DNA of 64,000 nucleotides from Lytechinus pictus (taxonomy: Eukaryota), in the NCBI RefSeq assembly GCF_037042905.1, contig NC_087250.1, positions 6,636,001 through 6,700,000 of the forward strand, read 5' to 3'. Shown here in pieces: positions 24,296 to 64,000 of the stretch (the stretch's first letter is position 1; each line of letters begins with the position of its first letter). The notes below the pieces were generated by a model. It was not told where the DNA came from. It did no database searches and was given only the letters and a program-made list of their open reading frames with translations. Position numbers and translations under genes: made by a program.

Positions 24296-24436
24296 TTTTT
24301 ACAGCAGTACAAAAACTGGGTGTCCTGGTCGGTCAAATGAATCGCTTAAAATATTATTAACGTTGATATTTGTGAACACTCATTTTAAAACTGTCTAAAA
24401 AATGTTAATGTTGAGCCGTTTTGAAGTAAGAGACGG

Positions 24437-35430: not shown

Positions 35431-37013
35431 ATATATTTGGCAAGAAGATCTCGGAATCGTTGACCGTTGGACGATGTCGTGAGAAATTGAGACACAAGTA
35501 CCTCGATAAACTGTGCAAGATTCAACTGAAGCCCTGGGATAAATCAGATTACGCTGAGCTCAAAGATTTGCATACGGTTGTAACAATGATGAGGAAAGAC
35601 TCGAGTGGGATAGATACCAAAAAGAAAGAAGAATTGAAAGGCTCTGTTGATAAAATATTTTCTACGAAAGTAAACGGGAGACTACCATCTCGAATCCTCA
35701 TTTCAGCTCCAGCTGGAGTAGGGAAGACAACAGCTATTGCAAAGATAGCGTACGACTGGGCTCAAGAAAAAAAAGAATCGGCATTGGAGCAGTTGCCACT
35801 TCTATTTGCTGTTAAATTTCGTAACACAAGCCACAGGACATCGATTGGGGAAGCCATCAAAACTCAGCTTTTAAGCGACGTTCAAGATCTCTCACCGGAC
35901 GGTATAGAGAGTTTCATCCGTGAAAATGAAGAGATCTGTCACATAATCCTAGACGGACTGGATGAATATGCAGGTATTTCTTCACTGAACAATATTGTCA
36001 GCGTCATTCGATGTGACGAGTTTCCACAATGTCGCGTGCTTGTAACAACACGCCCTCATCTAGAAAGCTACTTCAATCAAGATGACCTTCCGAGGGTATA
36101 CACTAAAATGTGGATCGAAGGATTTTCGATGGAGAGTTCCAAAGAGTACATCGACAGATTTTTCAAACTTAATTTGAGTGACGAAAAGGGTGAACAGCTG
36201 AAAGAATACCTCAACGACCAACCACTCATCGATGAACTTGCCAAAACACCCCTCTTTTGTCTAATGATCTGTCACCTGTGGAGTGAAGATCAACTATGTA
36301 GTGATGTCAGTACCCAAACAGATTTGTTTGACAGCGTGAATAAATTTTTAATGCATCATGCAAACGCTCGCTTAGGGTCAACTACGTCAAGGCTAACCTT
36401 CACTCACAACAAATTATATAGGATAATTAAGGAAATTGGCAGAGTTGCGCTCTACGGTCTACTCGATGATGCCAAGAAACTAATCTTTACGCTCCGAGAT
36501 TTCCGTAAAATTCCTCATATCCTTGATAAGGCATGCAAGCTCGGAATAATTTCCAAGACGACAGTGCCAATCACAAACCTACCTCAGTCCGACGAGACCA
36601 CTTCCACTCAAATTGAATTTTATCACAAATTAGCACAAGAACATTCGGCGGGTAAATTCATCGCTAGTGCAACACGGCGCTTACCATTACGGTTAAGAGT
36701 ATCTAAGTTGGACCGAATCTTGTGGAAGATTAATTCAAACATCGGAGACTATGAGGAACTCATCCGATTTGCTGCTGGCACAAACAGGCGTCTAGGAATA
36801 CGAATAATGGAAGCACTCCTTGCAAACGAGCATTTGGAAGAGAAGGAACGGTACCGCATTCTACTTGACTGTTCATCAGAGTCCAAGGATAGTGGAGGAA
36901 ACATGTCTTCGTTGGTTCAAAGATGCGTCACTGCACAGAGTATCATTCTGAAGTCACCAACTATGTATACTGTCGTTGGGCTTAAAAACCTTCCGAAGCA
37001 ACTGCAACATGAG
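35431..37013 (+). CDS. NACHT-domain exon of an NLR-type (NACHT-LRR) gene
   Basis: Acceptor ttttccttcag at 35430 and donor GAG/GT at 37014. Walker A APAGVGKTT, Walker B HIILDGLDEY, sensor VLVTTRP, IEGFS, TPLF and winged-helix FYHKLAQEH, in an uninterrupted frame. Confidence 0.92.
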
Positions 37014-37395
37014 GTATCTAAAGCCAAAATGTACATTCCTCTTTTCAACAAAGAAAAACAAACCTGAATGTCATTTCATTTCACATTTTCTTTTCCCTTA
37101 ACTCTTTGCACGTTGAATATGATTTTCGGGGAATAATAATGAAATCGTTTCCATGTTATTTTCTTTAATTTAAAATTTTCATATTACACCATTGATGGTT
37201 ATTATTATCATATAAATATTATGCAAGAAGTATTGCCTTTTATTAGCTCATCTTATTTGAAAGTAGGGGAGAAAACTAATCATTGCGATTGTTGAATATA
37301 ATTATACGAATGTGCAAGAGTGCAGCATCAGGGCGCGCAGTGTTAATACTACCATGTTCATCATGTATGTTTTTCTCACTCTCCCCTGATACTAG

Positions 37396-37931
37396 GTAAG
37401 AACAATGAGGTTCGAGGAGTCTGTGCTTACGGCTGACGTGGCCAGACGAATGTGGTCCTGTCTCAAAACATTTCCTAACTTACATACCATGTGCATCACA
37501 GACACTTCTATAAGTGTTCCATCATCTCTTCAAAAGCTCCCATCAGTTACTCGTCTGTTAGCCAAGAGAATGACGCCTAGCTGTTACACAAGCGTACTGT
37601 TATCTCTACCTCATGCAAGGGAGCTCGATGTATCCATCGTAATTGAAAATACGAGCAACACTTTCGAGATGGAAACCGATACTTACCGTATGAATCAAAT
37701 TGTATATCATCCACACGATATTAACACGATCAATGTGACACTTCAACAATGCGTGTCACAGTCATTGGGTGAAGTCAATTTGGGATTGAAATCTGGAGGG
37801 CTTGCTCTTCTGTTTGAAGAACAATCTCAGAATCAGCACCTACTATCTGTTTCTGGGGATATGGGCAGATACGGAGAAACCGTGGTTGATCTGTTTGTCA
37901 TGACGACACAACTTACCTATTTGAATTCTCC
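37396..37931 (+). CDS. Next NLR exon, degenerate leucine-rich repeats
   Basis: Acceptor after a pyrimidine tract (..ctag at 37395), in phase 0 with the NACHT exon, and a GTAAGT donor at 37932. LRR-like segments FPNLHTMCI, LPSVTRLLA, LPHARELDV. Confidence 0.8.
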
Positions 37932-39151
37932 GTAAGTATTTATTTCTCTTTTAACAAAAGCAGATCAACTTTCTATAATTCCACTCCCTGATCCACATTT
38001 TAAGTTTTATTTAGATCGTAATTTACTCCATGCGTGAAATTTAGCCAAAATTAAGCAAGACTGAGAGAAAGCCTCTTCGGTGGGAGTCGTTAACTATCTG
38101 TATGTATTTATATTAATTTGCTTTGTTCATTCATATATTAATTTTTTTTTTTTTAGTTTTAAAAACAGATATAGATATATTTGATAAAATAGTTGTTTCA
38201 TCGTTTCAATATAATTTTGAAGAGCTAACATGCAAAAGGGACTATATCCATTTTTATATTTTAGCATTTTTTTTTTGCAGGTTTAAATTGACATTCACCA
38301 TATTCATTAGACTGACTATAGACCAACACCCAAAATTTTCAAGAATTTTATTAAAAATGGACGTGGAAATTTACGTTGTCATGCAAAAGGGACTAAATCT
38401 GCCTTTGCTCAATCTTCACAAAACGCTGTTTTTTGTTGTTTTTTGGGTTTCACCTTAATCAATGTTTCCTTTCAAAATGTTTTTCCTTAGCTTAAAAATC
38501 ATCAATGTACGTATACAAAATGCCAGTAAAAAAAAAATCCTGCAGACTGCTTTTTATTTTATATGACTTTTTACATTATTATTTTTTGGATTTCGGCCCT
38601 TTGCATGAAAAGTTCTGAATGGTAATAGATCTACAGGAGGTTTTAACATTAATATAACAGTTCCTCCCTCCCTTTCCTTTCTATTGACAGTTTAGATATT
38701 GAAAAAGGTTTACTGGTCTGTTATTAGTTACATGTATAGGTTTTGCCTGACATAGAAACAACTTGAAATCAGTTTTTATGATGTATAAGGAAACATATGA
38801 AATAAGATACATTTTTTACCTATTTTGATGACTCTGGAACATAGTGTAAGAACTTCCTGAAAGGAAACATAGATTTGGTTGGACTAAAAGGTAACTTTAC
38901 TGCCAACTCGTCCAGTAACCTCATCAGTCTGGTCTGCTAGTGAAATTATTTGGACACGATGGACTAAAGCAAGAATTTTTTTCTCTAGACCTTTCTATAT
39001 GACTTGATTAAGGATTGAAAATAGGGCATGCTCAAAAAAAAAAAAGTCTGACAGCAGGAACAGTGAAAAAATGAGTGGAAATATAATAAATTATTAGTTT
39101 AAAATGGTCTGATATATAGACTAGTGCAAGTACAAAAATCAAAGCAGTGCA

Positions 39152-42100
39152 TTATTAGGTGGTCTGTCAACGACAGATCACCTATTGATTTCGCCAGAAT
39201 TTTCTTTCTTTATTTATTAGGTGGTCTGTCTATGACAGATCACCTCTTGATTTCGCCAGAATTTTCTTTCTTTATTCTTTATTTATTCTTTATTTCTTTA
39301 TTAGGTGGTCTGTCAACGACAGATCACCTATTGATTTCGCCAGAATTTGTATTTCTTCCGTACACTTTTTTGTACACACGTTCACTCGAAATCGACATGG
39401 TCAATTTCCTTCAAATTTCTGTCAGTCATCAAGCCCTATGATTTCAAGTAAAATCAACTTTTTCAAGGTCATCAGGTCATGATGACGTCATCCAGGCGCC
39501 ATTTTGTAAAATCACATTGTCGATCATATCTCCATTATCAATTATCAAAAATCAATCAAATTAACATCACATCAACTTCAGGTCAAGGGTCAACAGGTCA
39601 TGTCATCAAAGGTCACCTGGAGGTCACGACGCGCGCGTACGCGCTCGTCAAAATTTTAAAATGCTCAAAATCACTTTTTGACCAAAGTAAAGTACGTTTC
39701 AGGTCATTTTAAGCATTTCAAAAATTTGCGCACGCACAGGTATGCGCGCGCGTTTCCGCGCGTAACGCCTTCAACGCAACGCAGAAACGCCGTTTTTTTA
39801 CATCATTGCATTGATAATATAATTCTGAGCAATTTGATACCTTGATCAACCTTCTACGACCATTAATAACGAAATTAACACCCGTTCAAGTTTGCAGCAC
39901 GTGTGCGCGCGAGCTCTTACTATAGGCCATATATGGGCAAAAACATGCCTATTAAAAATTCACTGTAGTTCTTTAAATAGTCCGTTGACCCCCAATTTTT
40001 TTTCATATATCGATAGAGTATGAGTTGTAGATTTGATTTCATGTCACCATTGTCCCTCAATTCGATCATGGCATCATCAAAATGGCGTCGGAAGTTAAAA
40101 TATCCATTTTCCTTGTTATGACGTCATAACAATTATGCAAATTAGGCTCTAACTCCGTGAATATTGGTCAATTTTCGCCCATTTTTCGATATGTTGTAGC
40201 TTAAGTCTTACTCTTTCTGAATAATTGCCTTTAATTTTCATTTTAATAAACGGATCATCCTCAAAAATTGCAAATAATAAAGACATGTCATTTTTCCTCA
40301 TTTTGCGTGCAATCTCTATGGGACATGACTTTTTCTCAAAACTAGATTCGACATTCCTCTATTTCGTGAGCCATATCTGCATTTTTTCTTGCCAGTTCTT
40401 CCTGAGCTTTTAGTATGTTGTAGCTGAGATTCTAAGCTTTCGAAAATGTCAACCTATCTTTTCGATCAGATGCCGGGATCATGCCCGTATTTCACTTGCA
40501 AAATTGGATTGGATATTCTCGTATTTTCCTTACGTGTAAAGTCTATGGGAAATACTCTAGCTCAATTCTTTCTTCTTTATTAGGTGGTCTGTCAACGACA
40601 GATCACCTATTGATTTCGCCAGAATTTGTATTTCTTCCGTACACTTTTTTGTACACACGTTCACTCGAAATCGACATGGTCAATTTCCTTCAAATTTCTG
40701 TCAGTCATCAAGCCCTATGATTTCAAGTAAAATCAACTTTTTCAAGGTCATCAGGTCATGATGACGTCATCCAGGCGCCATTTTGTAAAATCACATTGTC
40801 GATCATATCTCCATTATCAATTATCAAAAATCAATCAAATTAACATCACATCAACTTCAGGTCAAGGGTCAACAGGTCATGTCATCAAAGGTCACCTGGA
40901 GGTCACGACGCGCGCGTACGCGCTCGTCAAAATTTTAAAATGCTCAAAATCACTTTTTGACCAAAGTAAAGTACGTTTCAGGTCATTTTAAGCATTTCAA
41001 AAATTTGCGCACGCACAGGTATGCGCGCGCGTTTCCGCGCGTAACGCCTTCAACGCAACGCAGAAACGCCGTTTTTTTACATCATTGCATTGATAATATA
41101 ATTCTGAGCAATTTGATACCTTGATCAACCTTCTACGACCATTAATAACGAAATTAACACCCGTTCAAGTTTGCAGCACGTGTGCGCGCGAGCTCTTACT
41201 ATAGGCCATATATGGGCAAAAACATGCCTATTAAAAATTCACTGTAGTTCTTTAAATAGTCCGTTGACCCCCAATTTTTTTTCATATATCGATAGAGTAT
41301 GAGTTGTAGATTTGATTTCATGTCACCATTGTCCCTCAATTCGATCATGGCATCATCAAAATGGCGTCGGAAGTTAAAATATCCATTTTCCTTGTTATGA
41401 CGTCATAACAATTATGCAAATTAGGCTCTAACTCCGTGAATATTGGTCAATTTTCGCCCATTTTTCGATATGTTGTAGCTTAAGTCTTACTCTTTCTGAA
41501 TAATTGCCTTTAATTTTCATTTTAATAAACGGATCATCCTCAAAAATTGCAAATAATAAAGACATGTCATTTTTCCTCATTTTGCGTGCAATCTCTATGG
41601 GACATGACTTTTTCTCAAAACTAGATTCGACATTCCTCTATTTCGTGAGCCATATCTGCATTTTTTCTTGCCAGTTCTTCCTGAGCTTTTAGTATGTTGT
41701 AGCTGAGATTCTAAGCTTTCGAAAATGTCAACCTATCTTTTCGATCAGATGCCGGGATCATGCCCGTATTTCACTTGCAAAATTGGATTGGATATTCTCG
41801 TATTTTCCTTACGTGTAAAGTCTATGGGAAATACTCTAGCTCAATTCTTTCTTCTTTATTAGGTGGTCTGTCAACGACAGATCACCTATTGATTTCGCCA
41901 GAATTTGTATTTCTTCCGTACACTTTTTTGTACACACGTTCACTCGAAATCGACATGGTCAATTTCCTTCAAATTTCTGTCAGTCATCAAGCCCTATGAT
42001 TTCAAGTAAAATCAACTTTTTCAAGGTCATCAGGTCATGATGACGTCATCCAGGCGCCATTTTGTAAAATCACATTGTCGATCATATCTCCATTATCAAT

Positions 42101-45100
42101 TATCAAAAATCAATCAAATTAACATCACATCAACTTCAGGTCAAGGGTCAACAGGTCATGTCATCAAAGGTCACCTGGAGGTCACGACGCGCGCGTACGC
42201 GCTCGTCAAAATTTTAAAATGCTCAAAATCACTTTTTGACCAAAGTAAAGTACGTTTCAGGTCATTTTAAGCATTTCAAAAATTTGCGCACGCACAGGTA
42301 TGCGCGCGCGTTTCCGCGCGTAACGCCTTCAACGCAACGCAGAAACGCCGTTTTTTTACATCATTGCATTGATAATATAATTCTGAGCAATTTGATACCT
42401 TGATCAACCTTCTACGACCATTAATAACGAAATTAACACCCGTTCAAGTTTGCAGCACGTGTGCGCGCGAGCTCTTACTATAGGCCATATATGGGCAAAA
42501 ACATGCCTATTAAAAATTCACTGTAGTTCTTTAAATAGTCCGTTGACCCCCAATTTTTTTTCATATATCGATAGAGTATGAGTTGTAGATTTGATTTCAT
42601 GTCACCATTGTCCCTCAATTCGATCATGGCATCATCAAAATGGCGTCGGAAGTTAAAATATCCATTTTCCTTGTTATGACGTCATAACAATTATGCAAAT
42701 TAGGCTCTAACTCCGTGAATATTGGTCAATTTTCGCCCATTTTTCGATATGTTGTAGCTTAAGTCTTACTCTTTCTGAATAATTGCCTTTAATTTTCATT
42801 TTAATAAACGGATCATCCTCAAAAATTGCAAATAATAAAGACATGTCATTTTTCCTCATTTTGCGTGCAATCTCTATGGGACATGACTTTTTCTCAAAAC
42901 TAGATTCGACATTCCTCTATTTCGTGAGCCATATCTGCATTTTTTCTTGCCAGTTCTTCCTGAGCTTTTAAAAACATGCCTATTAAAAATTCACTGTAGC
43001 TCTTTAAATAGTCCGTTGACCCCCAATTTTTTTTCATATATCGATAGAGTATGAGTTGTAGATTTGATTTCATGTCACCATTGTCCCTCAATTTGATCAT
43101 GACGTCATCAAAATTGCGCCTAAACTGAAAATTTCATTTTTTCAAAAATGACGTCATCAAATTTATGCGAATTTGATCATAACTCCGTGAATATTGATCA
43201 TTTTTTGCCCAAATTTCGATATGTTGTGGTTTAGAATGTACTCTTTCTCGCAAATAGGCATGAATTTTCATTTTGAAAAACGCATCATGGTGTAAGATTG
43301 CGATGAAAAGAGGCATGTCATTTTTCCTCATTTTACGTGTAATCTCTATGGGACATGACTTTTTCTCAAAACTAGATTCTACATTCCTCTATTTCGTGAG
43401 CTATATCTCCATTTTTTCTTGTTAGTTATCCCTGAGCTTTTGGTATGATGTAGCTGAGATTCTAAGCTTTCGGAAGTGTGCCCTTTATTTTTCGATCAGA
43501 TGTCAGGATCATGCCCGTTTTTCGCTTGCAAAATTGGATTTGTAATTCTCAAATTTGCTTACGTGTAATCTCTATGGGAACGTGTAATCTCTATGGGGAA
43601 TATCGTGGCTCAATGGATAACGCATGACTTGAGTTCTCGGGGGCGCAGGTTCGAGTCCTGGGGGTGAACAAGACGATTTTTTTTTCATTTTTTTTTTCTT
43701 TTTACCACCTCGTACATGATCCTTTATGATAATTAAAAGGTATGAAAGTTAAAATTTAGCAAGATTAAACAGATTATAATAACTTTTTTCATATCACATG
43801 TATTTTCATATATCAAAGAGACCCTTTTCACAGTGCTTTATCATCTCCCGTCTTTCACAAGTATTCCATCCATAATGAACATTCCGTTGTCATCATGAAG
43901 ATCATATTGATCTGCTGGAACATGGTAATAGTGATCATGATGGCGAGAATAAGGACAGACCACCTAATTCGTCCGCATGACGAATTAAAATCTAGTTTAT
44001 TTTTATTTCTTCCGTACACTTTTTTGTACACACGTTCATTCGAAATTGACATGATCAATTTCCTTCAAATTTCAGTCAGTCATTAAGCCGTATGATTTCT
44101 AGTAAAATCAACTTTTTCAAGGTCATTAGGTCATCGTGACGTCATCCAGGCGCCATTTTGTAAAAATCAGGTCATTATCATATCTCGATAACGAGTGATC
44201 AAAAATCAACTATATTTGGTATACATCAATTTCAGGTCAACGGTCAAATAAAAATTTCATCAAATTCCGCGCGCGCACCTCGACGCGCACGTACGCGCGC
44301 ATTAAAATTTTAAAATGCTCAAATTCGTTCCAAATTAATTTTCCATACGTTTCAGGCCATTTTAAGCATTTTGCAAAAAAACGCGCGCACGCACATGCGC
44401 GCGCGTTTTCGCGCGTAATTGCATCTTCCAACATAGAATCGCCAAATTTTTTTATATCAATGCACCGATAATATAATTCTGAACAATTTGATACCTTGAT
44501 CAACCTTCTGCGACAAGTAATAACGAAATTATCACCCGTTAAACTTTGCAGCACGTGTGCGCGCGAGCTCTCACTACAGGCCATATATGGGCAAAAACAT
44601 GTCTATTGAAAATTCACTGTAGCTCTTTAAATAGTCCATTGACCAGAATTTTTTTTTTCATATATCGATAGAGTATGAGTTGTAGATTTGATTTCATGTC
44701 ACCATTGTCCCTCAATTTGATCATGACGTCATCAAAATTGCGCCTAAACTGAAAATTTCATTTTTTCAAAAATGACGTCATCAAATTTATGCAAATTTGA
44801 TCATAACTCCGTGAATATTGATAATTTTTCGCCCAGATTTCGATATGTTGTAGTTTAGAATGTCCTCTTTCTCGTCAGTAAACATAAATTTTCATTTTGA
44901 GAAACGCATCATGGTGTAAAATTGCGATGAAAAGAGGCATGTCATTTTTCCTCATTTTACGTGTAATCTCTATGGGACATGACTTTTTCTCAAAACTAGA
45001 TTCTACATTCCTCTATTTCGTGAGCTATATCTCCATTTTTTCTTGTTAGTTATCCCTGAGCTTTTAGTATGATGTAGCTGAGATTCTAAGCTTTCGGAAT

Positions 45101-50374: not shown

Positions 50375-52462
50375 TTAATATTGAATATAAATCTTTACCC
50401 AAAATGAATATTTGTGCCAACTTTGAACTTTTAAGAGCACTGGTTACAAACTGAGAAGTTGTTAGATCTACAAGTAGTTTTCCTGCATTTCTGGCTATCG
50501 TGTGTGGTTACCATTGTAATGCACTTTGTGACTAATGCAAAAAAAAAAAAAAAACGGTTCTTGTACATCTTTACCTCAAGGCCAATGTATGAGCCACAAT
50601 TCATGAGTATTGGTTTAAAACTGATGAATTAGTTCAAATCGCAAGGTTTTAACCCAAATTTTGCCATCTAATTTGGTGTTACCATGGCAACACAATTTCG
50701 GAAACACACACAAAAAATGTGTCTTGTACAACTTCACCTCAAGCCCAATGTGTGTGCCAAATTTCAAGAGAAATGGTTAAAAACAGAGGAAGAGGTTCTA
50801 ACTGCAAGATTTTTACCTATTTTTTGGTCATAATATACTGTTACCATGGCGACACAATTTCCAACACATTCGAAAAATGTGTCTTGCACATCTTTACCCA
50901 AAGAGCAATGTATATATGTATATATACACACACACCAACATTGAACCCCTTCAGCTTGTTTATGCATCTGCATTCAGATATTTGGTACATTAAGATTACA
51001 GGACAAACAGAAAATCTGTTCAAAAAGCGTCTGAATTCAAAAACTAAGTAAAAGCAAAGAAATACTCTGCTACTGAGTTTTGCACTGGCACTTTTCTATA
51101 TATCAAACTACTTTAAACTCATAAATTCTTACATTTTCACCCATTCTTGTCACTGTTCCTGCAGCCAGAGTTTTAGGAGAATACCCTGTTTTTAATTCTT
51201 ATACATAAACAAAGGTCTAGATAAAAATTCTTGCTTTTAGTCGGGTAGAAATTATTGCATGACCGTCAAGTTGGGTATGACTGCGATTTTTTTTGCTGGA
51301 AGTTGTAGTATGGGGTGTCTTTATCAAGAATCAAATGGATGCCACCTTGGCACCCTTGGCCATTTTTTTTTATTAACGCCATAGGCCACGCCCACTTTTT
51401 CATACCTCTTAAATATGAATTTCAAATTTTAAGGAATAAACATGTCATGTTTGGTATCAACTTAAAGCTAATGATAAATAAAATGTAAATTTATGGATCA
51501 ATGGACATTTAAATTACGCATACGTCAGTTGAAGGTCATTTAAGGCCATTAAAGGTCAAATTGCCTTACAAATGTAAGAACTACATGTAATGTGGAACAT
51601 ATCATGCTTAAAACAAAAACAAGTTGGATTTATTGGCAAACGTTAAAGGCAAAACATAACATCGCTCCCTGTAAAAAAAAAAATCAATGTTGATACCTGA
51701 AAATAGTATGGGTAAAGCAGTTACAATATTAAAATGCCGTCATGAAAATCTCACATCACAAAAATAATTGGATTTATTTATAAAAATATGAAATATAAGT
51801 GACCCTCTTTCAGTTGTAGGAGTCCGTTGTGACAGAAAGTTCGTTGCATTTCAAAATTGTGCCATGTATTTATTAGTAGCGCCCTCTTTCGATGAGAGTG
51901 TGCAATGCTCATAGATGATCGTTGATTGGTGCTCTGATGTGTGGAGGCGGGGCAACGAGCGACGAGGAACAAGTGTTTTGCTTCTAGGAAGTACGTTCCC
52001 ATATACACATCGGCGTTTGCGAAGTGCCATTGCAGTTTGGCCGATCAGCGTGTCTGTGTTTACAAAGAATCCCCACGTTTCCACTGCCGCCATGTCCTCT
52101 CACTGATTGTGAGCGCTGATTGTGTTTATGTAATGGTCTCATGTGGCCGTAAGAGGTCAAAGGCCAGTCTAGTATGAGGCGCCGAATGTACCAATATTAT
52201 ATAGAACAATTATTTGTTATATAATCATTATTTATTAAATAATTTTAACATTTTATTTGTAAATAACTACTATTATATAAAATATCATTTCTAATTATTT
52301 ATATATAATTCCAAGTAATACTTCATTATTTGTAAATAATAATAGTTCGACATTCCATTATTTATAAATAATGATTATTTGTTTTTCATTATTTATAAAT
52401 AATGATTATTTGTTTTTCATTATTTACAAATAATGATTATTTGTTTTTCATTATTTATAAAT

Positions 52463-52824
52463 AATAAGATTATTCGAATAAGCGAAGAAGATAGTTTGCG
52501 AGAGAAGACAGGTCTTCTCAAAAAACCAATTATTGGCAAGCCATACACGGCCCGCGAAAACAAAGCGCGCCCCTGCGATTCCGCGGGAATTCTCCAAGGA
52601 CACGCCCCCAGCAACATGTCTGTGATTGGCTGGGCATGTCATGGATGGCGCCGTTACACAGCGCCCTTGGTGGCAGCCAGGCAACGGCAACGGGGGCACA
52701 GCCTCTACGCTAAAAAGAACCAATGAAATGCATTGAAAGAATTCAGGTACGTGCGCAATACGCGACAGATTTGGAAGCACATGTTCATTCTCAACTAAGC
52801 TCTGGGGGATGCAAGACGTTAATT
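52463..52824 (+). repeat. Repeat A1 (362 bp), promoter-like
   Basis: Matches 57592-57953 with 2 substitutions seen. Contains CCAAT/ATTGG motifs and a CACGCCCCC GC box. Confidence 0.95.
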
Positions 52825-55800
52825 CGTAGTTCGCTATGAAACCGTTCTTGGATCATCATAGTTTAGGCCTCACTTTAGCAGGCTAATACAAACCATTTTA
52901 AGTACTAGTATTGCTCATCCCAGGTCACAGGGATGTCAGGATAAAATGGATCCCGGGAAAATTAATTCTCAGCGTTTTTATCAACATTATGAATGGCTAG
53001 CCGTCCAGATCTCGCTGACGACACGCTGGTGGAGCTGCAGAGTGCAGTGAAGGGATGGACGGATACAACGCTGAATTACCGAACCCCTACAGGGACTATC
53101 TCAGTTAGGCCGGGATCACCGTTCTCGTTAGAGGTCTAACGTTAGATCGACCGCTATTTTGCCACGGTCTATTGGTGAGACTGCAGAGTTGGAATATACA
53201 TCAGCTTCCACAGGAATAATAAGTACTTTCAGTCAAACGGAAGCTCTGACCAATGCCGTGAATGAGGATATTTGCCGGAGTTGTTCTCCTATGAGTACAA
53301 CTAGGCCGATTGTCTTTTGAGGCTGTGCCTGTGATAAAACTGCCGGCGATGCTTCGAGTTCGATGGAGCTGGATCTAATTGATTGTTGATGCGAATGGAG
53401 TGGAGTTAGGGCCCGGACCACAGTGTATATATCTTGACCCGGTGAGTGTTTGGATCCATGTTTGTACTTGTAGTTGCACATCTTGACCTAGACCTTAAAT
53501 GAATTTGGCCTGAACCGGCCGCTATAGTATAGCTATTACTTAACTTGGGGCCCGGAACTCTAACGTTATAACTTGTGATACTAGATTAGGCCTATATCTA
53601 TTGACCAAATTCAAAGTTCCAACTCAGACTAAATGTTCTCTGGGCCTGGATCTATCCCTATAACCCCTTTGGCTTTGGTTCTAGGGCCAACTATGATATA
53701 CGATATCGATCTAGATTCTAGGTAATAGGACCGAACATTTTTCAATATATTTCTAATGTGGTTGCGGGAATGCAGGATAAATGGAAACTGAAGGACCTAG
53801 GCTAGCTTCGACTCGGCTTGGTTTGCGACTGGAGTTGAGTTGATTCAATATGACTTTATGAGAGCGTTGGTAAGGGTCGAATCAGAGGGATTGGCGTCGC
53901 GCCCTACTCGGAAAGGCAGCGTTGAACAGTGGACTGAGTTGAATTATCAAATATTAGGTCAAAACCTATCACAATATGAGTTTTTTGTATTGGATCTAAT
54001 TAAAGGATCAACATTCTGTTTCGCCAGCTGAGTCCCGGCTCATGCTACAAAATAAACAAAAAAGAAATAAACGATGCTCCATACACCAAGCTGGATCCCA
54101 CGATAATTTGAGCCCATTGATCAGCTGGCATTTTGTAACCAAATTCCCCAAAATGAACAGGATAGGGGCTATAAATGAAACTGGGGTGGCTGCCTTCGGT
54201 GTGAACAGGGATACGATAAATATGATGAAATAAACTGCATTCGCCTACCGGTACTAAAACGATATTATTCATTGAGATAGATGGTAGAGGTATAGGTCGA
54301 TGTACCGTAATCCGTATTTTGCTGTCCATTGGGCGTGTGTAATAATAGTTATTTGCTTGGTCAACTTCATCCTGTTCTGGACCTACATGAATTAACTGGC
54401 AGCTTAGTTGCTTGATGAGGTTGGGGAATGCTAAGATACGTCATTTTTTATAGACCTCTATTACCAAATTTCAGTTCGGAAATGTAGTCAATGTATGCCC
54501 AGTGTCCGTACCACTTATCCCTTCTCGCCGGCCTCGAGTTTATAAGATGGCGTAAAGATAAAACATAACCACAATAAAATATACGTCGATTGTATCATTC
54601 CGGGTGAGGAGGGGAAGTTGAGGGCGTTTGTGCCCCCCCCCCCCCCCGAAATGCTCAAAAGAGCCCTGGAAAACCCCATTTATTGCCATGTTAAAGCTTA
54701 TCCAACGCTGTAGGTTCGGCCCCTAGTTGTGAAAAGTGAAGGGAACGAGTGCGGGATTCACAAATTCATTGGCATACTTTTTAAAAGGGCGCCTTGGAAA
54801 ATCCCCTTTTATTGCAATTCTGGAGCGTTGCAAGTTAAGGCGATTAGTTGTGGAAAGTATAAGGGAACATGTATGGAATTCCTTGCACACATTCTTGTCA
54901 CGTTGTGTTGAACAATACTCTGCCGGAAGATTTGTTTGTTTTTTACCTCTCCAGGGACGTGGAGTCTGAAGTTAATTGGCCAGGGCACAAATGATCAAGC
55001 CTAGACCCAGACTGATGTACGAGGAGACTTAGCTAAGCTTGACCTGGACTGGTGTACGAAGGGACAGGGCTTAGACTTGGCTTACTATGGTTCACATTGG
55101 ATGACAGTGGTTGCAAAGGTTTTCACACTGCAAGATGAGAAATCCGGATTTATTTGAAGATGCCGGATTTATGGTTTAACGTAATGCTCTAAATAGACGA
55201 GAGGTTGAGAAATGCAGTGATCAAGATCCTTAAGTCCAGACTTGAAGAGGAAACATGAATAATCTCGAAGTTGTTGAGAAGTATAACCCTTTCGGAGAAA
55301 ACTAAAAAACCTTGGAAAAAGGGGGCATTATGGGAACACCTTCAGTTCGTATCTATTTGCAATACTGGGCAGCCAGCAAAGTCGGTTGAAGCATCGATAA
55401 CCAAGAATATAAACAAAAACTGTGAGGCATGTCCCTCTGGTGCATTTATGTGCTTATATATGTCTCTTCCTTTAAGACATAACCTCACCTGTTGTAAGAG
55501 GCGATCTCATATATGAAGCCAACTTGAATGTGGGAATGCACGCCTTGATTTTTATGCCCCCATTTAACTTCATTAATCGATGTGGAATGGATATTATTAG
55601 TTTCGATTCACACTGGTGACCAAAAACGAAAAAAAAAAAAAAAAAAAGAGAGAAAAAGAAAAAAAGAAAAAAATCCCGGTTCTTAGCTTGAAGGAAGGCA
55701 TTCCTACATAAACATTACACATGAGAAAATCATGCAAAATTTCCTAATGCATGAACTGTTACCAGGGATGATGAAATTCAGTGGTCTTATTTAACGGTTA

Positions 55801-57111
55801 TGGAGGCCACAGTTTGTTCACTTGAAAAGAAATACACATTTATCAAATAGTTGTGGAGATTGATTTTGTATGGCATTTCATCAAACAGTTGAGTTGTACA
55901 ATAATGATAGAATTACTAGCATGGTTTGGCTATACGTTAATTTGATATATTCTTTGGCCTCAAATTATTTCATGTTAGAGTCACTTCGATGACCCCCTAA
56001 TGGACATTAAGTTGAAATTATTTGAAAGAAGGGTACTCCTTTTTAAGGTGTGCCAAGACATTTGTTGATTTGTTGTTTCACATTTCCGCAAAAGTGGATC
56101 CGAAGGTTTTCCAGAGTTTCTTCTCACCGAGTTTTATCTCTGGTTTTTTACCCTGGACCTACTTGACGTGGAATTGGTTTCAGCTCTCGTTGCATGAGTT
56201 GTGTTTAGTGCAACGAGGGCTTAAACTTGCGAACAACATTCACTCGCAGGGGGAATGAAATAAGCAAGGATGCTATGTTGTCAAGCTTGTTAATGGTTTA
56301 GAGTGAGAATGGTTGGCCAATGTCCAATTGATGTAGAGATATTTATAACAACTTGGAGGTGTAGACGAAGAGTATGGTATATGATGCGTCCATTCGTTGA
56401 TCGCATGAGATTGCTTTGTATGGAATATTTTTTTGATTGTTGACTATCCATTCCGATGGCTGGCATGGTTTATTGATCATTAACTTAGTTGTTGTTGTCC
56501 TTGATTATTGAATTGGCTGGGTTGTCGAGCGTGAAAACTCACTTTTGAACTTATGGCTTGGTTGGGCTTGGTTACAGAATTACCGACTGATTATTATCGG
56601 TAGCTTTGACATCAGCTTTCCAGGGGAGGCAATGGTTTGATAATTTAAAGTCGACGGCACCGATGCACGGCCCTCTATTCTACCATTTAGGGTCGCCGCC
56701 GAGGAGGCAGAATATGGGACCAAATCCTACTTTAGTCATGATATCGGGGGTGCTTTGGAAGAGTGGCCCTTATTTTATCGAGTATTATTATACAATAAAA
56801 TGCACAAAATAGAATTCTCATACTAGTATAATGGCGACAGTATTGAAGTACGAGTATAATTACATGACAAAAGAAGATGACGCTCATAGTATATATGTTG
56901 GTCCTAGTGCAGAGGACAAGGGAGAGAGAGCATAATTTATGGGTTTCCGAAACCATGAGTTGCAACCAGGAAACCAGACGCGATGGTTTGGGAGGGATGG
57001 CCTTGACATGAAGGGACTCCCAAAATCCAATAGTGTTTGCCAAGTGTCACGGCAAAAAAAAAAAAAAAAAAAAAAAAAAAATGATTATTTGGGGCTTTCG
57101 CTTTTTTGTGG

Positions 57112-57594
57112 GTATTTTTTCTTATATCGGTCAAATTTCAACACCAGGGGGAGGCACTGTATACTAATTATGTCAAGAAAATCGGGACAGGGGAACCCAA
57201 CTTTCCAAAGTCTCCTGGTTTGAAAGTCCGGCTGGATGTCTTCCGGCAGGTTCCCCTTCCAAGAATTCACGTTCTGGTCTTGAAGCCTCTCCCCCAATTT
57301 TATTTCACACATGAGATAATCTTGTATTGAATAGATGATAAATGTAAAGAGGGGAATCCGCACCCCAGGAAATACCTGTCCTGGGATCCCGTTGGATCTC
57401 TTCCTTCTGGGAGGTCACGTGACCCGGTTTCCCCCTTAAAATCTGGTTGATTGTGGCTTGATGAATATTGTTTAGAAACTGTGTACTTGTTAAAATATTG
57501 TAAATGTCGTTTTAATGATTCTGGTAAAATCCCCCAGAGGCAATAAAGTTGAGAAACGGCAATTTCATGTTCGATCTGTATTTATTCTCGCAAT
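57112..57594 (+). repeat. Repeat B1 (483 bp)
   Basis: Matches 59573-60055 with 1 substitution seen. AATAAA at 57542. Confidence 0.95.
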
Positions 57595-57953
57595 AAGATT
57601 ATTCGAATAAGCGAAGAAGATAGTTTGCGAGAGAAGACAGGTCTTCTCAAAAAAACAATTATTGGCAAGCCATACACGGCCCGCGAAAACAAAGCGCGCC
57701 CCTGCGATTCCGCGGGAATTCTCCAAGGACACGCCCCCAGCAACATGTCTGTGATTGGCTGGGCATGTCATGGATGGCGCCGTTACACAGCGCCCTTGGT
57801 GACAGCCAGGCAACGGCAACGGGGGCACAGCCTCTACGCTAAAAAGAACCAATGAAATGCATTGAAAGAATTCAGGTACGTGCGCAATACGCGACAGATT
57901 TGGAAGCACATGTTCATTCTCAACTAAGCTCTGGGGGATGCAAGACGTTAATT
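57592..57953 (+). repeat. Repeat A2
   Basis: Directly fused to B1 through AAT; constant 5129-bp offset from A1. Confidence 0.95.
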
Positions 57954-58229
57954 TGCCCTCCCTCCCGCCCATTTAATAATGGTTGTGAGTGGTTGGTTAT
58001 AATATTGTCAGGGTCGGAGGGTATTGTTTCTGCCTCCAAAAATGTGGTACACATGTTATGAAAAAAGATTGGATGATATAATACATGGTTGTTAATAATT
58101 CTGTCGTGATTTTTGTTTATACTCAAATCTGTCAAAGGCGATTGTGCTAATTAATCTAAATGTGGTAATAGCGAATTTTAAAGACGGGGCTCGAGATTGC
58201 TCAATGAGCCTGTTTAAGTGCAAGTTGTG

Positions 58230-59570
58230 CCGGTTACAGTTGATTGAAATAACCTTATATTTTGGTTGGTTATACTGTTGATAGATAACATGGATTTATT
58301 TTGGTTGGTTGGCTGGGCATGTGTTTTGATAGAATTGCATTGGTTGCATAGGCTTGTATTAGTTGACTGGATGGGCTTGATTGGCTTGTTGGTCGGATAG
58401 ACTTGCATTGGTTGGTTGGGCGATATGTTTGGTTGTTTATTATCATAAGGATCCACGCTCTACAAGCAAGGCTTTTAGTGGATCCCCTCATTTCCAAACA
58501 AGTTCTTGTTAATACAATTGCCAAAATTTTCATAATTTGTCTATAGTTGATTTGTAATTACAATTGTTGTGTATTTGTGTTTATGCATTTAGTGCATATT
58601 TGATTTGTACCGTGATTTTTTATGATGTACATGACGGAAGTTCAAAATGAACTCGTTTTTATTCGGTTGGATGTGCTTGCGCTGGTTGGGTGGATGGGCT
58701 TGCTATGATTGGTTGGTTGGTTATAATGATCATAGGGATTCACGCTCTCCAAGTAGTTATTTTAGTGGATCCCCTCATTTCCAACCAAGCTATTAATACT
58801 TTTGTACAAATTTTAAAATTTTGTCTGTAGTGGACCGGCAATTACAATTTATATGTATTTGCAAATTGTTTATGCGCACTATGATGCATATTTAATTCGT
58901 GTTTGTATTTGGTAATGATGTACAAGATGAACTGAAATTTGTTTGGTGGCTTTATATGGTTGGTTGGCTGGGCTTGTTCTGGTTGACTACAATTGCACAA
59001 ATTTTCATAATTTGCAGTTGATTTGGAATTATAATTGATGTGTATTTGTGTTAATGCATTTGATGCATATTGATTGGTACCGTAACTTTTTGTGATGTAC
59101 ATGACGGAAGTTCAAAAGGAACTTGTTTTGTTTGGTTGGATGGGCTAACATTGGTTGGATGTTTGGGCTTGTTATGATTAGTTGATTGGTTATGATCATA
59201 TCGATCCACGCTCTATCAGCAGATCCTTTAGAAAGATCCCCTCAGTTTCAACCAAGCTGATAATACTATTGTACAAATATTGAAATTGTGTCCGTAGTTG
59301 ACTTGTAATTACAATTGATATGTATTGTCATTGTTTATGCATCATATCATTTATAATTGATTTATGTTTGTATGTGGTAATGATGTACAAGGTGAACTTA
59401 AACTCGTTTGGCTAGTTAGATTGGCTTTACAGGGTTGGATGGTTGGATGGGCTTGTTATGGTTGGTTGGTCGGGCTTGTTATGGTTGGTTGGTCGGGCTT
59501 GATATGGTTGGTTGGATGGGCTTGTTTTGGCTGGTAGGATGGGCTTGTTTTGGTGTTTGGCCTGATTACT
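58230..59570 (+). repeat. Diverged ~470-bp tandem units with TTGG-rich tracts between A2 and B2
   Basis: GATCCACGCTCT..GATCCCCTCATTTCCAA recurs near 58450, 58737 and 59203. GATGTACATGACGGAAGTTCAAAA occurs at 58624 and 59094. Confidence 0.8.
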
Positions 59571-59572
59571 GA

Positions 59573-60055
59573 GTATTTTTTCTTATATCGGTCAAATTTC
59601 AACACCAGGGGGAGGCACTGTATACTAATTATGTCAAGAAAATCGGGACAGGGGAACCCAACTTTCCAAAGTCTCCTGGTTTGGAAGTCCGGCTGGATGT
59701 CTTCCGGCAGGTTCCCCTTCCAAGAATTCACGTTCTGGTCTTGAAGCCTCTCCCCCAATTTTATTTCACACATGAGATAATCTTGTATTGAATAGATGAT
59801 AAATGTAAAGAGGGGAATCCGCACCCCAGGAAATACCTGTCCTGGGATCCCGTTGGATCTCTTCCTTCTGGGAGGTCACGTGACCCGGTTTCCCCCTTAA
59901 AATCTGGTTGATTGTGGCTTGATGAATATTGTTTAGAAACTGTGTACTTGTTAAAATATTGTAAATGTCGTTTTAATGATTCTGGTAAAATCCCCCAGAG
60001 GCAATAAAGTTGAGAAACGGCAATTTCATGTTCGATCTGTATTTATTCTCGCAAT
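59573..60055 (+). repeat. Repeat B2 (terminal)
   Basis: Constant 2461-bp offset from B1; ends ..TTCTCGC-AAT into the host repeat. Confidence 0.95.
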
Positions 60056-63000
60056 GATTATTTGTTTTTCATTATTTATAAATAATGATTATTTGTTTTT
60101 CATTATTTACAAATAATGATTATTTGTTTTTCATTATTTATAAATAATGATTATTTGTTTTCCATTATTTATAAATAATGATTATTTGTTTTTCATTATT
60201 CATAAATAATGATTATTTGATTTTCATTATTTATAAATAATGATTATTTGTTTTTATATTATTTATAAATAATGACACTACATCCTTCATTATTTATAAA
60301 TAATTGCAATTCGTTTTTCCGTTATTTATAAATAAGTTTTCTATTATTTATAAATAATAATTATTTATTATCAATGCCAGTGTACATTTCATTATTTATA
60401 AATAAATTTTTTGTTAAATAATGAAAACGTCTACTTCATTATTTATAAATAATTTTTTCGAGTGCACTATTATTCTCATTATTTATAAATAATCATTATT
60501 TAATGTTTGAGTTTTCCATTATTTATAAATAAAGATTATTTGTTAAATAATGAAATATCTACTTCATTATTTATAAATAATAATTTAGTTTCAATATCCC
60601 ATTATTTATAAATAATCATCATTTATAAACAATTTTTACAGTTTGCCATTATATACAAATAATCATTATTTATATACAAAAAACCATTATTTATTAAATA
60701 ATGCCATTATATATTAAATAATGAAAAACTCGCTATAACATGCAAATGTGGGACCGCCCATGATATGAATATTCATGATGCGATTTCCTTTTTCGTGATT
60801 TTTCTTCGCAAATTTTTGTCCATTTCCTCTTCATAATGACATTTCTTGAAGCAATTTTCTAGGAATATGGTCTGATTGTAATATTCTTCATTTTCTATAT
60901 AACTTCGTCTTCGTAGAAATATCAAAAAGTGTAATTTTATACGATTTTTCCTACAGTTCACAATCCCCATAGGCGCGCGTGTATCGTAGGGACAACCGGT
61001 GAATCGACGGAGTGCTCTTCATCGAAATACTACGTTGGTTGGTCCCCGGAAGTGGCGGGCGGAATTTAGCCCGAATCCTCGATGGAAGTAGATCAAGTGC
61101 ATATGAGCTGAGAGAGTGAAATATCAGTGTACAGGCCCTTCTACTTTTTATAAATATTTCTTGTTGCTTTTTTTGTTAAGTTAATTTTTCCTGGTGTAGA
61201 GATAAGTTTCAGTTCTAATAATGCACTTCAAATACATTTTGGAGTGTCTGTTTGAGGCGTTTGGGGCGATTTCACCCTGGCCCCAAAATGCTCGCAACGA
61301 CAATACGGAGGCATGATGACCCCTAAATTTTTAAAAACTTATTTTTCTATTGAAAATTATCAAAAAATTCACCAAAAGTGTGCACGAAAGCCTTCGTATT
61401 TCACTTTTAAAACTCCAAAAAGTGCCCAAATGACAAGCTTGGTCGCTTCGCTGTGTCGCTTTCAACTTGAGAAAGTTTACGCGTCTGCTTCCCCCCCCCC
61501 CCCTCCTCCGAAAGAAATTCTGTATACGGCCATGCTCTAAAGAGCCTGGCACATTGATTTAAGTATACTTTCATTTTCATAATTTTTATCTCATTATCAT
61601 CATGACCTTACGCATAATTTTTTCCAGGGGGGCCGGGGCCGGAGCATGACGCGCGTAAACTTTCTCAAAAAAATCTTGAAAGCGGGACCAAGCCCAAATG
61701 ACATACTTGGTCGCTTCGCTGTCTCGCTTTCAACTTGAGAACGTTTACGCGCGTCTGCCCCCACCCCCGAAAGAAATTCTGTGAACGGCCATGCTCAAAA
61801 GAGCATATGGCACATTGATTTATATGTACTTTTCATTTTCATTATTTTTATCACATTATCATCATGGCCTTACACAGAATTTGTACCGGGGGGGGGGAGC
61901 AGCAAGAACGCGCGTAAAGTTTCTCAAAAAATCTTGAAAGCGAGACAGCGACGCGACCAAGCTCAAATGACAAGCTTGGTCGCTTCGCTTTTTCAAGATT
62001 TTTATGAGAAAGTTTACGCGCGTCCTGCTCCCCCCCCCCCCCCCTGGAAAAAATTATGCGTAAGGCCATGATGATAATGAGATAAAAATAATGAAAATGA
62101 AGTACACATAAATCAATGTGCCAGGCTCTTTAGAGCATGGCCGTATACTGAATTTCTTTCGGAGGAGGGGGGGGGGGGGAAGCAGACGCGTACACTTTCT
62201 CAAGTTGAAAGCGACACAGCGAAACGACCAAACTTGTCATTTGGGCACTTTTTAGAGTTTTAAAAGTGAAATACGAAGGCTTTCTTGCACACTTTTGGTG
62301 AATTTTGTGATAATTTTCAATAGAAAAATAAGTTTTTAAAAATTTAGGGGTCATCATGCCCCCGTATTGTCGTTGCGAGCATTTTGGGGCCAGGGTGAAA
62401 TCGCCCCAAACGCCTCAAACAGACACTCCAAAATGTATTTGAAGTGCATTATTAGAACTGAAACTTATCTCTACACCAGGAAAAATTAACTTAACAAAAA
62501 AAGCAACAAGAAATATTTATAAAAAGTAGAAGGGCCTGTACACTGATATTTCACTCTCTCAGCTCATATGCACTTGATCTACTTCCATCGAGGATTCGGG
62601 CTAAATTCCGCCCGCCACTTCCGGGGACCAACCAACGTAGTATTTCGATGAAGAGCACTCCGTCGATTCACCGGTTGTCCCTACGATACACGCGCGCCTA
62701 TGGGGATTGTGAACTGTAGGAAAAATCGTATAAAATTACACTTTTTGATATTTCTACGAAGACGAAGTTATATAGAAAATGAAGAATATTACAATCAGAC
62801 CATATCCCTAGAAAATTGCTTCAAGAAATGTCATTATGAAGAGAAAATGGACAAAAATTTGTGAAGAAAAATCACGAAAAAGGAAATCGCATCATGAATA
62901 TTCATATCATGGGCGGTCCCACATTTGCATGTTATAGCGAGTTTTCCATTATTTAATAAATAATGGCATTATTTAATAAATAATGGTTTTTTGTATATAA

Positions 63001-64000
63001 ATAATGATTATTTGTATATAATGGCAAACTGTAAAAATTGTTTATAAATAATGATTATTTATAAATAATGGGATATTGAAACTAAATTATTATTTATAAA
63101 TAATGAAGTAGATATTTCATTATTTAACAAATAATCTTTATTTATAAATAATGGAAAACTCGAACATTAAATAGTGATTATTTATAAATAATGAGAATAA
63201 TGGTGCACTCGAAAAAATTATTTACAAATAATGAAGTAGACGTTTTCATTATTTAACAAATAATCCTTATTTATAAATAAAGGAAAACTCAACAAATTAT
63301 TTATAAATAATGAAATGTGCACTGGCATTGATAATAAAAAATTATTATTTATAAATAATAGAAAACTTATTTATAAATAACGGAAAAACGAATTGCAATT
63401 ATTTATAAATAATGAAGTATGTAGTGTCATTATTTATAAATAATATAAAAACAAATAATCATTATTTATAAATAATGAAAAACAAATAATCATTATTTAT
63501 AAATAATGAAAAACAAATAATCATTATTTATAAATAATGAAAAACAAATAATCATTATTTATAAATAATGAAAAACAAATAATCATTATTTGTAAATAAT
63601 GAAAAACAAATAATCATTATTTATAAATAATGAAAAACAAATAATCATTATTTATAAATAATGAAAAACAAATAATCATTATTTGTAAATAATGAAAAAC
63701 AAATAATCATTATTTATAAATAATGAAAAACAAATAATCATTATTTATAAATAATGGAATGTCGAACTATTATTATTATCCTCGATGGAAGTAGATCAAG
63801 TGCATATGAGCTGAGAGAGTGAAATATCAGTGTACAGGCCCTTCTACTTTTTATAAATATTTCTTGTTGAAAAACAAATAATCATTATTTATAAATAATG
63901 AAAAACAAATAATCATTATTTATAAATAATGAAAAACAAATAATCATTATTTGTAAATAATGAAAAACAAATAATCATTATTTATAAATAATTAAAAACA

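Follow-up and report, generated by a model that had tools for sequence, protein, structure and literature searches.

A non-coding element with split direct repeats in a satellite foldback of Lytechinus pictus, a candidate non-autonomous member of the DIRS order

Retroelements that use a tyrosine recombinase are uncommon, and most of what is known about how they integrate comes from models. TOC1 is an algal element present in tens of copies, and Day et al. are reported to have described in 1988 an unusual split arrangement of its terminal repeats.

TOC1 has been classed as a non-autonomous DIRS retrotransposon (PMC9940879), and SIRE, another non-coding relative of elements of this kind, corresponds to the A2-B2 part of VIPER (PMC6681497). 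For DIRS1-like elements, the account in PMC3266345 has a 3-bp junction recombining with an identical genomic sequence without any target-site duplication; 23 of the 28 elements annotated there start and end with NTT, mostly ATT, and their circular junction is AAT. Ngaro elements are described with the order A1-[ORFs]-B1A2B2, in which A2 adjoins B2 (PMC8547959), while the nematode form of Pat1 and Kangaroo are reported to carry their internal repeats far upstream of the 3' end (PMC4157794). According to the same literature, sea urchins, Lytechinus included, host DIRS1-like, Pat1-like and Ngaro elements (PMC3266345, Table 1; PMC4157794).

Here we describe a non-coding element of 7,587 bp from the window, that is, the whole 64-kb stretch of DNA analysed. 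It is composed of split direct repeats in the arrangement A1-body-B1|A2-spacer-B2. We read it, with a probability of roughly one half, as a split-direct-repeat element belonging to the tyrosine-recombinase retroelements (DIRS order), with a PAT/TOC1-like layout. Because it encodes no RT, RNase H or tyrosine recombinase (YR), it could belong to that order only as a non-autonomous member.

Repeats, ends and insertion site

Between 52463 and 60055, the plus strand reads AAT, A1, body, B1, AAT, A2, spacer, B2 and AAT. The left AAT (52463-52465, sequence reading) is the target trinucleotide common to the element junction. It is followed by A1 (359 bp; 52466-52824, from blastn and alignment), a non-coding body of 4287 bp (52825-57111), B1 (480 bp; 57112-57591), the internal AAT forming the B1-to-A2 joint (57592-57594, sequence reading), A2 (359 bp; 57595-57953), a spacer of 1619 bp (57954-59572) that is G-rich on the plus strand, B2 (480 bp; 59573-60052) and the right AAT (60053-60055, placed by sequence reading and empty-site comparison). 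Comparison of the region with itself by blastn paired 52463-52824 with 57592-57953 (362 bp, 2 mismatches) and 57109-57603 with 59570-60062. A and B are two unrelated direct repeats in interleaved order, and AAT alone parts B1 from A2. Base-by-base alignment placed the differences between A1 and A2 at 52526 (C/A) and 52673 (G/A), 2 of 359 positions, and the single difference between B1 and B2 at 57223 (A/G), 1 of 480. The first-pass annotation had proposed the order A1...B1A2...B2, with about two and about one differences between copies. Self-comparison, alignment and sequence reading confirm the order, the counts agree, and the ends it gave at 52463 and 60055 coincide exactly with the outer AAT trinucleotides.

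A1 has a GC content of 0.50 and contains 23 CpG, with a CpG observed/expected ratio of 1.01 (0.88 in the whole window), and CCAAT and ATTGG each occur twice in it; from its sequence we infer that A1 is a promoter module. Each B carries one AATAAA, 44 nt before its end (57542-57547 in B1, 60003-60008 in B2). In A there is no AATAAA, nor was TTTATT, the polyA signal for the other strand, found there. About 1.2 kb of the spacer consists of diverged tandem units, with 58502-58946 and 58976-59411 at 81% identity and two further pairs at 77% each, accompanied by 23-bp G/T-rich arrays (5.2 copies at 59436-59554). Two short stretches of dispersed repeat (about 54643-54705 and 56084-56176) lie in the body, as do two A-rich runs, at 55622-55673 and 57054-57081, the latter a perfect (A)28 that ends 30 nt upstream of B1.

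Directly after the (A)28 run stands AATGATTATTTG (57080-57091, plus strand), a 12-nt internal copy of the target site in which AAT is followed by the right flank's initial 9 nt. This 12-mer has 27 matches in the window, 26 of them in or beside satellite arrays and only the internal one elsewhere; the chance expectation is 0.10 per 64 kb. Its presence inside the element is not foreseen by a simple model of circle integration.

The element sits inside one arm of a foldback-like structure made of a 31-bp satellite. The left flank (52209-52465) is a satellite array within the interrupted arm, the right flank (60056-60723) belongs to the same array in exact phase with the left, and the phase runs unbroken across the insertion once 52466-60055 is taken out. 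The opposite, inverted arm holds a paralogous site at 63290-63777 on the minus strand: 52335-52465 of the left flank is identical to 63777-63647 (131/131), and 60056-60413 of the right flank matches the adjoining 63646-63290 at 97.8% over 358 bp. Since both flanks match it side by side, the opposite arm serves as a paralogous empty site in which AAT occurs a single time; in the filled site AAT bounds the element on either side and also stands between B1 and A2. The element was inserted as one piece with no loss of host sequence. What is new is an insertion into the arm of a satellite foldback whose uninterrupted opposite arm is the empty site. The true and recent insertion claimed earlier is borne out on both points, being precise by the continuous satellite phase and the paralogous empty site, and fairly young by 3 differences in 839 bp of repeat.

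Coding capacity, copies and sequencing runs

Stop-to-stop open reading frames of at least 60 aa overlapping 52400-60100 number 46, none of them longer than 139 aa and, within the body, none longer than 131 aa; the body was rightly said to lack a long frame. Pfam searches of six-frame pieces revealed no trace of RT, RNase H, gag or tyrosine recombinase in the element: 9 of the 129 pieces (at least 35 aa) matched any family at E<=1, with a best E of 0.015, and no match passed its family cut-off or belonged to those four kinds. A 130-aa minus-strand frame of A1 (plus 28 nt of body) gave 7 candidates in a protein search, none at E<=0.001. Rfam, searched over 52000-60600, returned no match at E<=1, hammerhead included, and a tRNA scan found none in the element. 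Beyond the element, Pfam applied to 53 of the 62 open frames of at least 85 aa in the 64-kb window found no RT or YR, the sole matches being to a Tc1-type transposase and a NACHT protein; the other 9 frames overlap the transposase frame in other reading frames or lie in the low-complexity stretch 22955-24395.

No second copy was found in the other 56 kb of the window, a tiny scope for a genome of this size: nhmmer with A, B and six body or spacer pieces gave no match at E<=1 against the masked window. Public contigs gave no match to a 25-mer from the start of A, sought in the metagenome and viral sets, or to a 24-mer from B, sought in the metagenome set.

In a search of sequencing runs, none was listed as RNA, and the best eight are guessed to be RNA or of unstated kind. 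In run X1, a single contig of 2359 bp spans B1-AAT-A2-spacer (57112-59478) unbroken, and contigs tile 52957-59602 at an even depth of 41-70 with zero on 52828-52956; the label of RNA is the tool's guess, and RNA, multi-copy DNA or a structural difference would all be possible sources. Contigs from X1 and X9 reproduce the body, the B1-A2-spacer stretch and the spacer-B joint at 99.4-100% identity. Run X9, tentatively taken as DNA, covers the body and spacer at contig depths of 4.3-6.8 and B at 11, which, read with no single-copy reference, looks like one element copy with B counted twice. In run X11, from a more distant species, depth over the bins of A and B exceeds that over the majority of bins in the body.

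Two X9 contigs carry other joints. One joins the end of A to 56236 (52815>56236); a piggyBac-type excision was considered for it and rejected, the TTAA motifs at 52819 and 56221 misfitting the joint. Another runs spacer-B-AAT-A, stepping back 7590, and could be a circle, a tandem or a permuted copy, or equally a path through the collapsed B repeat; the X9 assembly is a low-depth de Bruijn assembly, and we count this contig for neither side.

As for transcription, a portion of run X23 (raw RNA-seq, 8.7 million reads, about 6% of the run) placed 84 reads on the stretch, 81 of them partial and all on the two short dispersed-repeat bits, so that no transcript of the element proper appeared in this part of one run. 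The animal behind X23 may itself be without the insertion. A large family still being mobilised, as the first-pass annotation pictured, finds no support in these data, with the single-copy-like depth in X9, the lack of a transcript in the X23 reads and the lack of a second copy in the 64-kb window.

Origin of the split repeats

The element carries AAT at either end and at its internal joint, and the empty site has it a single time, which is the integration signature under a rule stated for DIRS1-like elements, for which ATT/AAT is also the trinucleotide most often reported. As a DIRS-order element, it would form a closed circle with B joined to A via AAT, and the internal B1-AAT-A2 would be a stored copy of, or template for, that joint. 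A tyrosine recombinase, supplied in trans, would exchange strands between the AAT of the circle junction and that of the target, which would leave no duplication beyond the shared core. The CpG-rich A with its CCAAT boxes may drive a transcript that would terminate at B2's AATAAA, 44 nt short of the end of that repeat. A transcript running from A to that AATAAA would give an RNA without the outer parts of A1 and B2, and these would be restored from the B1A2 joint. The model requires read-through of the polyA signal in B1.

An appreciably less probable reading is a tandem heterodimer, in which two different non-autonomous units with the same ends, A-body-B and A-spacer-B, stand head to tail. 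It could have arisen if one AAT received two site-specific integrations in turn, or if a dimer circle was integrated; the units could be Crypton-type DNA elements and not retroelements. The interiors of body and spacer share nothing (outside A and B, local alignment scores stay within the shuffled range), which suits two separate units, and a second circle integrating at the end of a resident copy would leave AAT between B1 and A2. Isolated A-B units are described elsewhere, SIRE being the non-coding A2-B2 part of VIPER (PMC6681497) and solo AB repeats occurring in Cafeteria (PMC8547959), and the X9 contigs joining the A end to 56236 and spacer-B to A indicate that other arrangements of the modules may exist. 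On the other hand, if X9 depth reflects copy number, there are no other copies of A or B, and two rare units side by side would be unlikely; a promoter-like A and a B with a polyA signal also suit an RNA unit, though DNA elements have both too.

The non-autonomous derivatives of Cryptons likewise have non-coding interiors, conserved ends, no inverted repeats and a short shared sequence at the joint; of the parent they are described as retaining nothing but the 5' and 3' ends, they lack terminal repeats, and sea urchin is among the hosts of Cryptons (PMC3212892). Each half of the present element (A-x-B) would fit such a derivative, with a 3-bp joint near the 4-6 bp reported, but the flanking repeats of Cryptons are given as 4-6 bp and not 3 bp (PMC13465315), and the derivatives are single units without split repeats, so that the interleaving would need a tandem pair.

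A sharper version of the heterodimer is more doubtful still. Two non-coding circles, different from each other but alike in their B-AAT-A junction, would have been integrated successively, and only recently, at the same AAT of the foldback arm by a sea-urchin tyrosine recombinase. If true, the locus would show split direct repeats in the making, and with them a low-copy element whose movement is conservative, as DNA, and which returns repeatedly to a single satellite sequence as its target; the internal 12-nt target copy would be the scar of an earlier stay in that satellite.

We regard as improbable, to much the same degree, a composite of unrelated steps, with a retrocopy A1-body-(A)28 beside an insert at 57092-60052 flanked by the 12-bp AATGATTATTTG, or else an unknown class with a 3-bp-duplicating enzyme. 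The recurrence of that 12-mer after (A)28 and at the right end, rarely expected by chance, speaks for the composite, as do the likeness of the perfect A run to a polyA tail and the AAT that precedes A1 too, by which A1-body-(A)n is bounded by AAT and AAT+GATTATTTG. The right end of the second insert, however, is the natural end of B, as at B1|A2, which points to a site-specific and not a random end, and the duplication expected of a nested polyA insert was not found (a 16-mer search allowing <=3 mismatches matched only itself). As for an unknown class, families that duplicate 3 bp are described with inverted repeats or, like Troyka, with CG..CG LTR ends (PMC12440569), and neither is present here.

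An assembly artefact or local rearrangement, for which the repeat-rich region and the X9 joints absent from the window might be cited, is very improbable in view of the independent X1 and X9 contigs that match the assembly and of an insertion that is base-exact against its paralogous empty site.

Several further classes were considered and rejected. Helitrons have a 5' TC and a 3' CTRR with a hairpin and insert between A and T; the ends of this element read AAG... and ...CTCGC. A Penelope-like element or retrozyme does not fit, as no hammerhead was found with Rfam and there are two interleaved repeat pairs, not one. LTR retrotransposons (Gypsy, Copia, BEL, Troyka) bear one and the same LTR at their two ends and duplicate 4-6 bp of target (3 bp in Troyka), whereas here the ends differ, A at the left and B at the right. 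If B+A were taken as an ordinary LTR, it would read TG...ATT (B starts with TG, A ends with ATT) and not TG..CA, and sequence reading found no TGG primer-binding start after A and no purine tract before B.

Comparison with described elements

As a DIRS-order element, the insertion is of value as a young copy adjoining a near-identical uninterrupted target, where both joints and the internal junction are visible to the base. Were Lytechinus to have a coding partner sharing these ends, the element could serve, in a laboratory sea urchin, as a usable substrate for tests of how circles form and how sites are chosen; if neither a partner nor a further copy exists, the structure requires a different explanation.

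Ngaro and VIPER elements have split direct repeats too, but their B1, A2 and B2 are contiguous at the 3' end, unlike the present element, in which A2 and B2 lie 1.6 kb apart. Of the Ngaro/PAT/TOC1 type assigned at first pass, the split-repeat order and the PAT/TOC1-like layout therefore stand, whereas Ngaro is imprecise, since its A2 adjoins B2. DIRS1-like elements are described with the same trinucleotide (3 bp, mostly ATT/AAT) at the ends, the internal junction and the target, without duplication (PMC3266345); their terminal repeats are inverted and they contain an internal complementary region, whereas inverted repeats of that sort were looked for inside the present element and not found.

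The PAT group (the nematode form of Pat1, Kangaroo and SpPat1 of sea urchin) is likewise described with A1..B1A2..B2 and a long interval between A2 and B2 (PMC4157794). That literature also takes away the oddity once seen in the long spacer, the internal repeats of nematode-form Pat1 and Kangaroo being comparably placed (PMC4157794). PAT elements encode gag, RT/RNase H, a methyltransferase-like domain and YR, whereas this element encodes nothing, and its A2-B2 interval, unlike theirs, consists of tandem repeats. TOC1 of Chlamydomonas is also multi-kilobase and ORF-less; it has a known autonomous relative, TOC3, whereas here one copy and no partner has been seen. Should a coding partner with the same ends exist in Lytechinus, the element would make a clean equivalent, in an animal, of TOC1.

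Layout, insertion site and surrounding window

The layout of the element was derived from a self-comparison of 51500–61000 together with a base-by-base alignment, and was checked against the sequence. Between a left AAT (52463–52465, 3 bp) and a right AAT (60053–60055, 3 bp), repeat A1 (52466–52824, 359 bp) is followed by the body (52825–57111, 4287 bp), repeat B1 (57112–57591, 480 bp), an internal AAT (57592–57594, 3 bp), repeat A2 (57595–57953, 359 bp), a spacer (57954–59572, 1619 bp) and repeat B2 (59573–60052, 480 bp). In the base-by-base alignment, A1 and A2 mismatch at 52526 and 52673, and B1 and B2 at the single position 57223; the coordinates, mismatch counts and repeat order reported in the first-pass annotation were all correct. 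Outside A and B, alignment found no similarity between body and spacer. The 12-bp overlap of the A and B repeats in BLAST is only apparent and has two causes: AAT is common to both repeats, and the start of A, AAGATTATTCG, resembles the satellite GATTATTTG, a likeness that is either chance or a relic.

On both sides the element is flanked by arrays of an AT-rich 31-bp satellite, whose phase is identical on the left and right once 52466–60055 is removed. Because the same satellite recurs inverted at about 62948–64000, the host site makes up one arm of a foldback-like structure. On the left, the flanking 52335–52465 (including unique sequence at the array edge) is identical to 63777–63647 at 131/131 positions, and the right flank (60056–60413) is 97.8% identical to the directly adjoining 63646–63290. 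Since both flanks match adjoining stretches there, the opposite arm is a paralogous empty site, in which TATAAATAAT adjoins GATTATTTG with one AAT. At the filled site, AAT stands at either end and the internal joint reads CTCGC-AAT-AAGATT; the element is a true, exact insertion. Near the site the arms show 8 differences in 489 aligned bases (about 1.6%), against 3 in 839 (0.36%) between the element's repeats, and on these divergences the insertion postdates the most recent homogenisation of the arms. This bears out the recent insertion proposed earlier.

The foldback-like structure pairs 52209–52465 and 60056–60723 with 62948–64000, the arms being 97.8–100% identical near the insertion site, and an inner inverted pair lies between them (61170–61586/62084–62500, 417 nt, 96% complementary). 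We take this structure to be reminiscent of sea-urchin foldback transposons (TU type). Elsewhere in the window, 35307–37064 and 37396–37935 (+) form a NACHT-domain (NLR-like) gene with 241 matches at E ≤1e-10, which is part of the large sea-urchin NLR expansion; its NACHT-domain frame (35307–37064) shares 96% identity with a protein of Lytechinus pictus and 87% with proteins from L. variegatus. A Tc1/mariner-type transposase frame of 364 aa is open at 6899–7993 (+) (HTH_Tnp_Tc3_2, E 7.6e-19; DDE_3, E 3.2e-18) and may be an intact DNA transposon. Two 72-nt tRNA-like genes, 14395–14466 and 20159–20230 (+), called by ARAGORN as tRNA-SeC (anticodon tca) and lying 5.8 kb apart, may belong to a repeated unit or be repeats derived from tRNAs. 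In 22001–26000, C strongly exceeds G (GC skew −0.28 to −0.32) and there are open frames of low complexity. At 40436–42267 (+), open-frame pairs 1279 bp apart (40436–40717/41715–41996 and 40731–40988/42010–42267), in which no Pfam family was found, suggest a tandem duplication.

Coding capacity, transcript signals and an internal copy of the target site

Forty-six stop-to-stop frames of at least 60 aa overlap the element region, the longest reaching 139 aa. Among 129 six-frame pieces of at least 35 aa, nine had Pfam matches at E ≤1 (best E 0.015) and none passed a family cut-off, with no reverse transcriptase (RT), RNase H, integrase, recombinase or gag; the lack of a long ORF noted previously therefore holds. 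An Rfam search of the element gave zero matches at E ≤1, and a tRNA scan found none inside it. Because no coding, Rfam or tRNA trace was found, the body is unrelated non-coding DNA and not a decayed autonomous copy. It carries two A-rich runs and two short dispersed-repeat bits; on the latter (54643–54705 and 56084–56176) fall many RNA reads that fit only in part, as well as deep contigs from several runs, and they are probably fragments of dispersed repeats present in abundance.

A has a GC content of 0.50 and a CpG o/e of 1.01, compared with 0.36 and 0.88 for the window, and contains the motifs CCAAT and ATTGG, twice each. B holds one AATAAA, 44 nt from its end and followed by a GT-rich stretch, and no polyA signal was found in A on either strand. 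Judging from the CpG-rich A and the AATAAA in B, a transcript would start in A1 and end inside B2, the outer parts absent from it would be supplied by the B1-AAT-A2 joint, and read-through of the identical polyA signal in B1 would be required.

The 12-mer AATGATTATTTG joins the AAT core to the 9 nt with which the right flank begins. The window contains 27 copies of it (0.10 expected by chance): 26 are within or next to satellite arrays, and one is at 57080–57091, directly after an uninterrupted (A)28 run and 20 nt upstream of B1. Because it recurs there, A1-body-(A)28 is bounded as if it had once been at the same satellite site; equivalently, 57092–60052 is flanked by a 12-bp repeat. A search upstream for a duplicate of the sequence that follows the (A)28 run found none, and the 20-nt stretch ahead of B1 is similar to a single unit of the 23-bp G/T array that precedes B2. 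The internal 12-mer may have been left behind by a previous stay in this satellite, in which case a site preference would be implied, and may also be a sign of stepwise assembly of the structure.

Representation in public sequencing runs

Part of 57000–58100 is contained in 20 runs from 10 studies, with shares from 0.89 down to 0.08 and five coded organisms. Contigs of run X1 (organism A; run kind guessed) cover 52957–55616, 55678–56117, 56136–57044, 57112–59478 and 59449–59602 at depth 41–70, with about 99.6% identity to the window by substitutions and about 99.3% counting gap positions, and leave 52828–52956 uncovered. As a single X1 contig spans B1-AAT-A2-spacer, the internal joint was not created by misassembly of the window. 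X1 has the sister repeat's base at 57223 and 57655, so these differences are private to the window's copy.

In X9 (apparently DNA, organism B), body and spacer contigs have depths of 4.3–6.8 and the contig with B has 11, the pattern that would be expected of one copy with B counted twice, these depths being relative among element parts only. One X9 contig runs spacer-end, B, AAT, A, and another joins the end of A (52815) to 56236, skipping 3420 bp (52816–56235) with 2 letters common at the joint. Both joints could be real variants; the first could instead be a path through a collapsed repeat, and the second may represent an allele with a deletion or an alternative arrangement of the element. 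Run X11, from the more distant organism D, has body, A and spacer pieces at about 90–97% identity, and its depths (122–793 in A/B bins vs 0–124 in most body bins, the two dispersed-repeat-bit bins excepted) weakly suggest extra copies of A and B in that organism. In X23, raw rRNA-depleted RNA-seq of organism A of which about 6% was read, 84 reads were placed, 81 of them only partly on the stretch and all of these on the two dispersed-repeat bits; that portion gave no sign of an element transcript. The large family and ongoing mobilisation in trans put forward by the first-pass annotation are thus unsupported by the data examined, X9 depth looking like one copy and the portion of X23 that was read giving no sign of an element transcript.

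Mechanism and relatives

The best available reading, to which we give a probability of about 0.5, is a split-repeat element without coding capacity whose integration resembles that of the DIRS order; by analogy, recombination of a circle junction with a target having a common short core does fit it. Its main rival, a tandem pair of two recombinase-mobilised units, seems rather unlikely. The lack of a hammerhead speaks against Penelope-like elements and retrozymes, neither end resembles that of a Helitron, and Troyka, with 3-bp duplications and CG..CG ends as described (PMC12440569), does not fit. An integrase-type LTR element is excluded by differing end modules and by the absence of TG..CA, of a primer-binding site after A and of a purine tract before B.

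The preferred DIRS-like reading has a described counterpart: in DIRS1-like elements, the 3-bp junction recombines with an identical genomic sequence without duplication (PMC3266345), an idea restated in PMC7192593. In the former account, 23 of 28 annotated elements start and end with NTT, mostly ATT, and the circular junction is AAT, the very trinucleotide of this element. The interleaved repeat order is that of PAT, Ngaro and VIPER, as their descriptions present it (PMC4157794, PMC8547959, PMC6681497). In these accounts B1A2B2 is contiguous in Ngaro and VIPER, whereas this element has a spacer between A2 and B2; nematode-form Pat1 and Kangaroo are described with internal repeats further upstream, so the long A2..B2 interval, formerly regarded as an oddity, is precedented. 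On this comparison the layout is PAT/TOC1-like rather than Ngaro-like, and of the initial Ngaro/PAT/TOC1 assignment the split-repeat order and the PAT/TOC1 likeness stand while the name Ngaro is imprecise. Table 1 of PMC3266345 gives sea urchins, including L. variegatus, as hosts for DIRS1-like elements, and S. purpuratus is reported to contain Pat1-like and Ngaro elements (PMC4157794) as well as Cryptons (PMC3212892). At most, the element would belong to a class that is already known, in which TOC1 and SIRE set the precedent for relatives without coding capacity.
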